Origin: a virus
Lineage: Duplodnaviria > Caudoviricetes
Length of the DNA: 64,000 bases
Direction: 5' to 3' (one strand)
Virus record (IMG/VR): IMGVR_UViG_3300042554_000410
Span: 1-64,000 of that record
A program made the translations under genes and the position numbers. A model generated the notes under the pieces. That model was not told the DNA's origin and did not search any database. It saw only the letters and a program-made list of their open reading frames with translations. Below, piece after piece: positions 38,925 through 41,464 of this stretch. Numbering within the stretch: position 1 is the stretch's first letter; each line of letters starts with the position of its first letter.

Positions 38925-39133
38925 AAATTTGGAGTGGGCTAACGACAACATTCTGGATGTTCCCGCTTGTCTTATCGGCGTATCCCCACTCAATACGCTG
39001 GAGTCAGTCTTTACTAACACGTAGCTACACGACTGACAGCGTTCTACGAATAGGCTTCACGGCGAAGATCGGTCACAGTATGCATCCTGCCGACTCGTTA
39101 CTTTAATCGCGCAAACTCTAACGAACCGTGAAT

Positions 39134-39209
39134 TGGCTGGATAGCTTGGATTCGAACCAAGGACATCCTCGTTAACAGCGAGGCGCTCTACCGCTGGAGC
39201 TACTATCCA
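39134..39209 (-). tRNA. tRNA-Asn(GTT)
   Basis: CCTCG-CT-GTT-AA-CGAGG, CCA. Confidence 0.95.
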
Positions 39210-39212
39210 ATA

Positions 39213-39340
39213 TTCTATACTTTCAGATATGCACCGACGGTTTCGAAGCCGTCCACCTTGAACGCCCCATACGGAGCGCGGCTGTGACCTACACATGAGC
39301 GGTAGCTACAACGCCCTGGTGCATATCTGAAAATATAGAA
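39213..39340 (-). ncRNA. long-stem ncRNA with T-arm-like hairpin
   Basis: 23-bp terminal stem; GACGGC-TTCGAAA-CCGTC adjacent to it. Confidence 0.65.
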
Positions 39341-39341
39341 C

Positions 39342-39501
39342 TCTCTTTTCGTCAGCGGTTGAAGTAGATGATGAGATTTTGCAACTCATACTGGATCTCC
39401 GATTCGTTCGTCAGAGGAACTACTAAGAATCACCGTTCTACTATTAAACTACATCTACTGATTCATCTTGGCCGAGACTATCAACCACTGACGAAAAGAG
39501 A
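39342..39501 (-). ncRNA. tRNA-like domain inside a ~21-bp carrier stem
   Basis: Acceptor-, D- and T-like arms at 39364-39458 within TCTCTTTTCGTCAGTGGTTGA/TCAACCGCTGACGAAAAGAGA. Confidence 0.7.
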
Positions 39502-39658
39502 ATTATGTGAGGCTACGCCGAATCGTAGTAATCTCACCGGTGTTTCGTCATTCGGTACGCTCAGTTTTAAAAAACTAAGAAAAAGGAACTTAACAATGTA
39601 AATCAGCGGTGCTGCTTATCCTGCAGCTAGGAAACTCTTTCAATCAACTTACAAACAC

Positions 39659-39727
39659 AATATAGCAGTTCAGAACCAGGAAGTCAACTTTTATTTTTGC
39701 ATAACTGCTATGTTCTGGACGCATAAC
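39659..39727 (-). promoter_or_regulatory. sigma70 promoter of tRNA operon with upstream ATGC-N7-GCAT-like box
   Basis: TTGACT-17-TATATT (39687-39659); box at 39699-39727. Confidence 0.7.
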
Positions 39728-39729
39728 TC

Positions 39730-39767
39730 AAAAAGAAGAACCCCGAAACTTTTGGCTTCGGGGTTCT
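39730..39767 (-). terminator. intrinsic terminator (putative attenuator)
   Basis: AGAACCCCGAAGC-CAAAA-GTTTCGGGGTTCT followed by TCTTTTT. Confidence 0.85.
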
Positions 39768-39792
39768 AAGAAACTAAGTCTATCCGTAAGAC

Positions 39793-39876
39793 TTAAAGCA
39801 TAGAACCCCTCGCGTCTGCCCATGCTGGGCGACCTTCAAATTGATTATTCGTAATTGGGCAATAATGCGATTTCAT
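39793..39876 (-). CDS. putative attenuator leader peptide MKSHYCPITNNQFEGRPAWADARGSML
   Basis: Lies between promoter and terminator; contains 19 different amino acids; 3' end carries the antiterminator strand. Confidence 0.7.
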   Translation of the reverse strand: MKSHYCPITNNQFEGRPAWADARGSML

Positions 39877-39901
39877 TTCCGTTCTTTCTAACTTTGTATT
39901 C

Positions 39902-39932
39902 TATTTATATCACAAGGAAGTCAATTTGTCAA
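39902..39932 (-). promoter_or_regulatory. overlapping sigma70 and T4-late promoter
   Basis: TTGACA-17-TATAAA, with the -10 extended to TATAAATA. Confidence 0.75.
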
Positions 39933-39933
39933 G

Positions 39934-40560
39934 TTATTCTCTAACTTTTCTAATTCTTTTTTCGTCGCCTAGATTTGCTCTTCCATCGTATGCCAAATCT
40001 GCGTTTGGACCATTTGCATCAACGTAGTGCAAAAATACTTGTGCTTGCCATCTGCCTGTATATTTTTCTCTCCAGTGCCAGAGATCCATTCCTCTGTAAA
40101 GAACAGCACCGCCCACTTCGATTATCTGTCTATGAACATCTGTGTGTTTATCAGTTTTAGAAAAAAAGAAAGGCCAGATAGATGACTTTTTATCGTGACC
40201 TAAAGTTATTGTGGCTGATATTTCGCAACTAGGGCGATCTTTGTGTATATTTAAAACTTCATTTTTATTGTAGAGTCTGGCATACGTATACGTTGGAAGT
40301 AGCGATATATTGATAAGAGATGATATCTTTGATCGATTTAGATCAAGAAACTTATCTAAAAGGGATTCTCCATATATACTACCTGAAAGAGTACACTGTT
40401 TATCTGGTTTTAATCTTCCTTCATTTTTCAAGGAAAGAAGATGATTCGTGAGCATTTCACACTCATACTTGTCCACAAGATTAGGAACATATGCCCAGCC
40501 ATGTTTTGCAAAATGCTGCTCTACATTTAGACAGGATTCTCTTTTATCTAAATTTTCCAT
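39934..40560 (-). CDS. 2OG-Fe(II) oxygenase-like protein
   Basis: PTYTYARLY, HKDRPSCEIS.T, HWRE, QVFLHYV. Confidence 0.82.
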   Translation of the reverse strand: MENLDKRESCLNVEQHFAKHGWAYVPNLVDKYECEMLTNHLLSLKNEGRLKPDKQCTLSGSIYGESLLDKFLDLNRSKISSLINISLLPTYTYARLYNKNEVLNIHKDRPSCEISATITLGHDKKSSIWPFFFSKTDKHTDVHRQIIEVGGAVLYRGMDLWHWREKYTGRWQAQVFLHYVDANGPNADLAYDGRANLGDEKRIRKVRE

Positions 40561-41372: not shown

Positions 41373-41464
41373 TGGTCGGCGTGCTTGGATTCGAACCAAG
41401 TCAAGAACACTCATCTAGTGCTAAAGGGATTATAAGGCCCTCCCGTGTACCAACACCCACGCCG
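41373..41464 (-). tRNA. tRNA with TAT anticodon (Ile-type) and long variable arm
   Basis: CGGCGTG/CACGCCG, loop CT-TAT-AA, V-arm AGCACT-AGATG-AGTGTT, CCA. Confidence 0.85.

Follow-up and report, generated by a model that had tools for sequence, protein, structure and literature searches.

Phage transfer RNA (tRNA) arrays are now viewed as tools against host tRNA-cutting defences, and the RNAs within them that are not tRNAs have barely been studied. Two small RNAs of this kind, rnaC and rnaD, arise by transcription of the tRNA region of phage T4; according to PMC3014915 their role is unknown, and it has stayed unassigned for decades. Bacterial Y RNAs combine a stem with a tRNA-like domain. PMC4201824 places their motif GNCGAAN0-1G near the 5' end and describes the T and D arms of Yrn1, from Deinococcus radiodurans, as oppositely oriented. 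Here we describe S1, a module at 39504-39339 on the minus strand of a 64,000-nucleotide window, by which we mean the whole stretch analysed (positions 1 to 64,000 of the IMG/VR virus record IMGVR_UViG_3300042554_000410). S1 is genuine and conserved, an RNA module specific to one strand in which a long stem closes off a tRNA-derived core.

The source record (98,496 bases, estimated to be 59% complete) encodes a T4-type DNA polymerase, a ribonucleotide reductase and a DnaB-like helicase. Its polymerase is at most 51.9% identical to Synechococcus myovirus polymerases, and the record is that of an uncultured freshwater T4-like phage. ARAGORN places 30 tRNA genes between 29552 and 53734, all on the minus strand, while Rfam at gathering thresholds returns 27 tRNA matches over the whole window and nothing else.

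Closing stem, strand and fold of S1

A repeat search found inverted-repeat arms at 39339-39362 and 39481-39504, each of 24 nucleotides (nt), that are 92% complementary and separated by 118 nt. Only two stems of at least 21 base pairs (bp) appear in a stem scan of the window, that of S1 and that of its direct neighbour at 39213-39340. The initial annotation had proposed a tRNA-like domain mounted on a 21-bp carrier stem. The long stem is real, and its length is 20 bp, or 24 bp with a 4-nt extension, rather than 21. This closing helix, which we call P1, has its 5' strand at 39481-39504 (core 39500-39481, extension 39504-39501) and its 3' strand at 39362-39343, extending to 39339, and it forms a continuous duplex of ~20 bp or more, as RNase III processing stems do. 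In a diverged copy of S1 at another locus, L104, the closing stem consists of 20 bp, an internal loop and a further 8 bp.

We tested the fold on 39342-39501. The minus strand folds at -54.0 kcal/mol, compared with -35.9 +/- 3.2 kcal/mol for shuffled sequences (z -5.73; 0 of 200 as good). The plus strand also folds strongly (z -5.06), because most of the energy comes from the long stem, which is symmetric, and energy alone therefore cannot choose the strand. The six-helix model set out below contains four G-U pairs, each of which becomes an A-C mismatch on the opposite strand; the initial annotation had pointed to a U-G wobble in the outer stem that pairs on this strand alone. A covariance model gives the minus strand 191 bits and the plus strand 34 bits, and the promoter and all tRNA genes lie, as S1 does, on the minus strand. 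S1 is a structure at the level of RNA, on the minus (tRNA) strand.

The model comprises P1 and five inner helices, P2 to P6, all on the minus strand and arranged as a four-way junction of tRNA proportions. It fits both the window and L104 with every pair canonical. Pairing is probable throughout the outer and the acceptor-like stem, at 0.9-1.0 (0.86-1.0 for P1). Between these two stems lies a 22-nt bulge on the 5' side that holds a conserved small hairpin, P2 (39465-39478), and this corrects the initial drawing. The loop of P2 carries a self-complementary GGCC; the stem letters differ in L104 with the loop core GGCCA unchanged, and one G-U pair becomes A-U in a near-identical copy of S1, L107. 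The acceptor-like helix P3 joins 39452-39459 to 39370-39363 over 8 bp at a pair probability of 0.9, and a UA dinucleotide at 39451-39450 follows directly after its 5' strand. L104 has 4+2 pairs with an internal loop in P3. The 3' strands of P3 and P1 are contiguous (39339-39370) and, like the P1 5' strand, are recognized from the repeat arms and L104. P4 (39435-39449) is a D-arm-like hairpin of 4 bp with a 7-nt loop lacking GG, in which one U-G pair becomes U-A in L104.

After P4 comes J4-5 (39417-39434), an 18-nt, mostly conserved single strand that replaces one nucleotide of a tRNA, and it is followed by P5 (39416-39397), a conserved 6-bp hairpin whose loop is 8 nt in the window and 15 nt in L104. 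The word GACGAA(C)G in P5 fits the Y-RNA pattern given above and is kept in both lineages, at mid-RNA rather than near the 5' end. We also weighed whether the P1 5' strand might pair with this P5 word instead; by inspection, the compensated P1 change in L104 makes a mismatch there, so that this alternative is not selected. P6 (39371-39389) is a T-arm-like hairpin of 5 bp that abuts the P3 3' strand. Three of its five pairs change on both sides in L104, and in its non-canonical loop a UGCAA core is the only part common to both lineages.

The pieces from which the initial annotation assembled a cloverleaf are all present, namely a 7-bp 'acceptor', the UA, a 4-bp D-like hairpin and a T-like hairpin of 5 bp whose loop is 9 nt, and inspection of the sequence confirmed that CCA is absent. 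Folded exactly as drawn, that cloverleaf has -43.9 kcal/mol; with its stems enforced and the remainder free, the value is -54.6 kcal/mol versus a minimum of -56.9 kcal/mol. One element had to be abandoned: the enlarged anticodon stem, GATTC/GAATC, whose 5' half lies within J4-5, has a pair probability of ~0.1 and is without counterpart in L104.

Relatives, covariation and likeness to tRNA

Copies of S1 are near-identical in L094 (the same contig as L006) and L107, and one is diverged, in L104. The L094 contig, from IMG/VR, holds a 602-nt copy that is 98.3% identical. L107, a metagenome contig of 1.2 kilobases (kb), carries S1 with one change behind another leader. The diverged copy, L104:7421-7581, lies between two modules of the type that neighbours S1 in the window (Type A, described below), and it was found via a pattern for that neighbour. 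An exact 24-mer scan of IMG/VR for S1 returned only the L094 contig and a gapped pattern only L104, while a metagenome scan gave two stretches, a contig as long as that of L104 and the 1.2-kb L107. No further copy was found by covariance model R1 in 100 sources (690,039 bases) or in five whole virus records. Among GenBank phages, megablast matched only the tRNA-Asn of one phage, and a more distant blastn search gave no match.

Comparing the window with L104, we counted nine pairs that change on both sides (two in P1, one in P2, three in P3 and three in P6) and five with one-sided compatible changes (two in P1 and one each in P2, P4 and P5). The initial annotation had pointed to folding and covariation as a check, and both support a structured RNA, with the nine both-sided changes coming from two lineages in a hand alignment. 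Using three window-type sequences and leaving out L104, we built a covariance model with structure (R2) and one without (R3). L104 scores 63.0 bits with R2 (expectation value (E) 6e-17) versus 32.9 bits with R3. The parts best conserved between the lineages are the unpaired ones, namely J4-5, the 5' side of P5, and the GGCCA and UGCAA loop cores. Conservation of the proposed tRNA-like arms is partial: P3, P4 and P6 are kept in L104, whereas the anticodon stem is lost and the hairpin at 39416-39397 is kept instead.

Natural variation adds to this comparison. A search of sequencing runs returned 24 rows; 14 of them, DNA runs that are all freshwater or lake, hold near-identical DNA, with at least half of the sampled words present. 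The six RNA rows contain at most 0.20 of the sampled words. Four sequencing runs were compared with the locus, all as assembled contigs. A 242-nt contig from a metatranscriptome library covers 39268-39509 with four differences. Two of these, at 39333 and 39315, turn G-U pairs of Type A stems into Watson-Crick pairs; the other two, at 39425 and 39428, lie within S1's unpaired linker J4-5, where one would break the anticodon stem first drawn. The four variants fit selection at the RNA level. The RNA run X16 has cover on the leader and tRNA-Asn only, and run X15 leaves 39510-39569 without cover, a gap from which we draw nothing.

The resemblance of the core to tRNA extends beyond its outline. Cloverleaf proportions are present in P3 with its UA, in P4 and in P6 where it abuts P3, and partial R2 matches that use model positions ~37-141 fall on real tRNAs: 36 of 38 overlap ARAGORN tRNAs by at least 50 nt, on the same strand and in register, in a search where tRNAs make up 14.4% of the bases. 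Gln-UUG, Lys-CUU and Trp tRNAs are matched most often. The central proposal of the initial annotation, a tRNA-like core with a long closing stem, is upheld. Where a tRNA has a 7-nt anticodon loop, S1 has instead the 18-nt linker and the 6-bp hairpin with its loop of 8 or 15 nt. Its 3' side continues straight into P1 and ends in no CCA, whereas the adjoining tRNA-Asn encodes CCA. S1 is not a working tRNA. Our conclusion is that S1 either descends from a tRNA body or came to resemble one by convergence, and that decoding was lost. Because the T-like loop is non-canonical and the D-like loop lacks GG, the elbow mimicry suggested initially is best described as possible.

S1 matches no RNA family in Rfam 15. 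At E<=10 over 39100-39950, Rfam returned only tRNA-Asn and noise, with no tRNA match in S1 at 39339-39504 (threshold 29 bits) and no ribozyme, ROOL or GOLLD match in the S1 region. A hammerhead around the word CUGACGA was considered and rejected, since no stem II is seen by eye and Rfam is negative. We found no account in the literature of stem-capped tRNA look-alikes in phage tRNA operons, in a search that did not extend to the tables of PMC10690425 (10,006 candidate IMG/VR viral RNAs), which may contain the motif. Elsewhere in the array, ARAGORN calls a 92-nt tRNA-Ile (UAU) at 41373-41464 with its anticodon at position 31, where Rfam has no tRNA match at gathering threshold; this is an unusual or doubtful tRNA.

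Operon context and other stem-capped modules

A sigma-70-type promoter is predicted upstream of S1 at 39687-39659 on the minus strand, with 10 of 12 consensus matches, a 17-nt spacer and TG before the -10 hexamer, and it is preceded by a terminator-like hairpin at 39767-39737. To judge from these signals, the promoter would drive the leader, S1, Type A, tRNA-Asn and beyond. L094 and L096 have a promoter and leader in the same arrangement. The predicted leader (39505-39650, minus strand) contains a 23-nt motif at 39607-39585 that is common to 14 IMG/VR stretches, a hairpin at 39579-39560 and a possible H-type pseudoknot that would pair 39555-39550 with 39523-39518 and 39537-39533 with 39511-39507. 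In L107 both partners differ in two pairs of the first pseudoknot stem, and the second stem is invariant. The leader hairpin co-varies, and Rfam has no match for the leader at 39505-39610. Just upstream of the RNA region, the gene at 39934-40560, which PHROG labels 'ferrochelatase' and for which Pfam has no match, shares only 67% identity between the window and L006. A gene of 67% identity next to an RNA region of 98% identity indicates a mosaic junction.

Directly downstream of S1 lies the Type A module (39213-39340, minus strand), in which a 23-bp closing stem surrounds a convincing cloverleaf; as a tRNA look-alike it is clearer than S1. Its arms, 39213-39235 and 39318-39340, are 23 nt long and 96% complementary, and they overlap the extended S1 stem by 2 nt (39339-39340). 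Besides its D arm and its near-canonical T arm, the cloverleaf has a variable hairpin and a mini-hairpin of 4-5 bp whose loop is 5 nt long. The sequence of the 5-nt loop varies and contains no consistent anticodon. The stem core is 13-14 bp, lengthened to 21-23 bp by a 7-bp 'foot' or, in the window, by nine extra pairs of its own. Across eight sequences from eight loci, 33 pairs are 95.8% paired, and in seven of them both partners change; covariation scores 0.238 versus 0.127 for shuffles (0 of 500 reach it), and slid controls are 32-46% paired. For the Type A copy of L101, ARAGORN calls a 95-nt 'tRNA-His'. The tRNA-Asn gene (GUU; 39134-39209, minus strand), found by both ARAGORN and Rfam, starts 3 nt past the Type A stem.

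After the 23-nt leader motif, phages differ in the stem-capped modules ahead of the first tRNA. The swapped modules are Type A, a 'Type B' that contains a T-loop-like word, another called 'Type C' and the row of three in L104, and the closing arms of different modules are unrelated. The row in L104 (L104:7249-7711) consists of three stem-capped modules placed head to tail, the first a Type A that carries a large insertion, the second S1 and the third again Type A. Of the 88 stems listed by the stem scan, 26 are at least 21 bp long, and all of these lie in tRNA-array sources except that of the 1.2-kb S1 fragment L107, while the 40 listed stems in tRNA-free loci are 16-20 bp; these counts include near-duplicate contigs. 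On balance, and jointly with the explanation of S1 given in the next section, we think that S1 belongs to an undescribed 'long stem plus swappable cargo' set in the tRNA operons of freshwater T4-like phages.

Several further observations concern the same kinds of element. In L104, S1 is flanked by an 8-bp 'foot' that lies beyond its 20-bp stem; the same foot of 7-8 nt flanks Type A and Type B modules elsewhere, though not S1 in the window, and in other phages its 5' half can alternatively close a small hairpin with a GAAA loop. Long-stem modules also occur between tRNA genes, at L088:5698-5813 (stem of at least 21 bp) and L095:11766-11896 (at least 17 bp), and the latter ends in a T-arm-like hairpin. 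L088:4213-4309 has an acceptor stem, a D arm, a canonical T arm, CCA and a greatly enlarged anticodon region; it is not called by ARAGORN and has no long stem, and its core plan parallels that of S1. Several related phages have, just after tRNA-Asp or tRNA-Lys, a conserved stem of ~15-17 bp with a 53-nt cargo; it lies at L094:7296-7382, with similar stretches in L087 and L104. BLAST at E<=1e-3 found no counterpart of this stem in the window.

Candidate roles and known systems

We favour, with modest confidence, the reading that S1 is a non-decoding, tRNA-derived RNA module in which P1 would serve for RNase III cutting, for end protection or for both. One transcript would run from the sigma-70-type promoter through the leader, S1, Type A and the tRNAs. 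To judge from its length and context, the two-turn duplex of P1 may be cut by host RNase III, may shield the ends from exonucleases, or may do both. S1 would be freed from the leader and its neighbours as a stable RNA of ~150-165 nt, and RNase P acting at tRNA-Asn would set the 3' side of Type A, 3 nt past its stem. The conserved single strands and loops, carried on a tRNA-shaped body, could then bind a partner, either a tRNA-recognising protein or another RNA, for example via the GGCC loop. The core of S1 may be a decoy, a scaffold or binding platform, or mere punctuation.

A number of results weigh against this reading. Some concern the fold: the six-helix structure lies 1.9 kcal/mol above the minimum in the window and 9.4 kcal/mol above it in L104, where the linker is the partner of the P2 5' strand in the minimum-energy fold, and the D- and T-like hairpins have pair probabilities of only ~0.2 in the window. 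Others concern covariation. There are only two independent S1 lineages, and the alignment of the inner helices was made by hand with the structure in mind. When the inner part is aligned with MAFFT, no signal of a consensus fold is seen (z +0.38; equalled by 184 of 300 column shuffles), and because this unbiased alignment shows none, the z of -6.3 obtained by hand (0 of 300 shuffles) is biased. Much of the gain of R2 over R3 must come from the 20-bp P1, and when Infernal aligns L104, several pairs of P3 and P5 go unmatched. As for likeness to tRNA, S1 has neither a canonical T loop nor GG in its D-like loop, Rfam at E<=10 matches no tRNA or Y RNA to it, and ARAGORN calls nothing on it with the intron option or lowered thresholds. 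All sequencing runs were contigs, and since an RNA library can contain DNA the metatranscriptome contig does not prove transcription. Finally, searches for RNase III, TROVE/Ro60 and CCA-adding enzyme domains found none in the 98.5-kb record (~59% complete), and without an RNase III gene there a host enzyme must be assumed.

The alternative that survives best is that S1 is pure punctuation, a cis-acting site at which the tRNA operon is cut or insulated during maturation, with a functionless, decaying tRNA gene as its cargo. We consider this somewhat unlikely; several observations speak for it: cargos swap freely at one position while long stems and the short foot persist, S1 is missing from most relatives (the 100 sources and five whole records searched above), and its core resembles a degenerate tRNA. 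Unlike a decaying remnant, however, S1 is best conserved in its unpaired segments and its stems compensate, an argument that is weak with two lineages.

The favoured reading of S1 as a tRNA-derived module can also be extended, though we give the extension little credence. S1 and Type A would form a new class of phage tRNA-body mimics, each with a hairpin cap and set free by RNase III, that soak up or redirect a host factor recognising tRNA shape. If so, phages would have in them an equivalent of Y RNAs without need for a Ro gene of their own, and the host factor could be a defence nuclease that targets tRNA, Rsr/PNPase, RNase P or an enzyme of modification. The mimics would then protect the large tRNA set of the phage, and the swappable cargos would reflect an arms race.

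That S1 is instead a Y-RNA-like tether, binding host Ro60/Rsr and linking it to an exonuclease, is improbable. The long terminal stem with a tRNA-like domain would agree with such a role, as would an orientation of the Yrn1 type, described in PMC4201824, and the word fitting the Y-RNA motif in P5 of both lineages. No TROVE/Ro60 gene is present in the 98.5 kb, however, in a domain search whose controls were positive in two genomes; Rfam gives no Y-RNA match at E<=10; the motif lies away from the 5' end; and the T-like loop is non-canonical.

We regard as slightly less probable again a new self-cleaving or self-assembling RNA, with a catalytic junction or with multimers formed by GGCC kissing loops. 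Conserved single strands do meet at a junction closed by a long helix, the conserved loop holds a palindromic GGCC, and ROOL and GOLLD multimerise by kissing loops, often near tRNA islands, according to bioRxiv 10.1101/2024.12.08.627333. The negative Rfam result at E<=10 for ribozymes, ROOL and GOLLD, the missing hammerhead stem II and the small size of the RNA (~160 nt) speak against it. A DNA-level element, either a miniature inverted-repeat mobile element or a protein-binding palindrome, is very improbable. Its terminal inverted repeats of 24 nt and its modular presence and absence among related phages would suit one, but S1 is single-copy in the 98.5-kb record, no target-site duplication is seen at its ends by inspection, its arms compensate and use G-U pairs that are mismatched in DNA or on the other strand, and the arms of other modules are unrelated. 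We dismiss, as the least credible of all, an unusual functional tRNA or a small protein gene: the stem proportions are those of a cloverleaf with UA after the acceptor-like stem, and a 77-codon open reading frame (plus strand, 39368-39601) exists, but the 7-nt anticodon loop, a conserved anticodon stem and CCA are all missing, Rfam and ARAGORN are negative, and the reading frame has no Pfam match, with none spanning the homologous L104 stretch.

The locus shows a modular system in uncultured freshwater phages, in which stems of two turns surround cargos that can be exchanged; at least two of these cargos are remodelled tRNAs. The modules are short (~130-170 nt) and suited to asking how polycistronic tRNA precursors are cut and whether mimics act in trans. 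Even an inert cargo would leave a clean case of rRNA-style processing stems in a tRNA operon.

Functionally, the nearest known system to S1 is that of T4 rnaC and rnaD. Like S1, rnaC (species 1) and rnaD (species 2) are non-tRNA small RNAs inside the tRNA cluster of a T4-like phage, and rnaC folds with a canonical T arm near its 3' end, so that it is partly tRNA-like, as S1 is. Species 1 RNA is reportedly cut by RNase III in vitro. Unlike S1, neither RNA has a 20-bp closing stem, and the T4 tRNA region (L100, among the 100 sources) gives no R1 match at E<=10, so that rnaC and rnaD are not detectably homologous to S1.

Bacterial Y RNAs such as YrlA and Yrn1 share with S1 a terminal stem and a tRNA-like domain, are non-decoding and include phage-encoded examples, according to PMC4201824. 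They lie within 4 kb of Ro60 and on its strand, whereas the record that holds S1 contains no Ro60/TROVE. The T and D arms of YrlA are near-canonical, and those of S1 are not. YrlA has a loop at the end of its acceptor-like stem and carries the extension on the anticodon side, while the acceptor-like stem of S1 runs into the closing stem. The initial annotation drew this contrast correctly for YrlA, but since PMC4201824 gives Yrn1 oppositely oriented T and D arms, an acceptor-side extension is not unprecedented among Y RNAs.

By analogy, the nearest processing counterparts of S1 are RNase III leader-trailer stems and the extended acceptor stem of mascRNA. The leader-trailer stems of ribosomal RNA (rRNA) operons are RNase III processing stems. 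In these, and in the small cytoplasmic RNA (scRNA) precursor of Bacillus subtilis as PMC1935012 describes it, a flanking duplex of about two turns surrounds a stable RNA, as predicted for S1; here, in contrast, a tRNA look-alike of ~120 nt is enclosed and several units stand head to tail before the tRNAs. The mascRNA/MALAT1-type RNAs have a tRNA-like fold whose acceptor stem is extended by pairing of the 5' and 3' flanks as a processing signal. They are eukaryotic and cut by RNase P, and their short extension needs a bulge, long continuous ones hampering RNase P, according to PMC8457004; the stem of S1 is 20-24 bp. ROOL and GOLLD resemble S1 in being phage RNAs that are structured but have no known function, and they often lie near tRNA islands, but they are much larger (GOLLD often >800 nt; bioRxiv 10.1101/2024.12.08.627333), and their Rfam models have no match at S1. 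S1 is related in kind to tRNA-like phage small RNAs and to RNase III-type processing stems.

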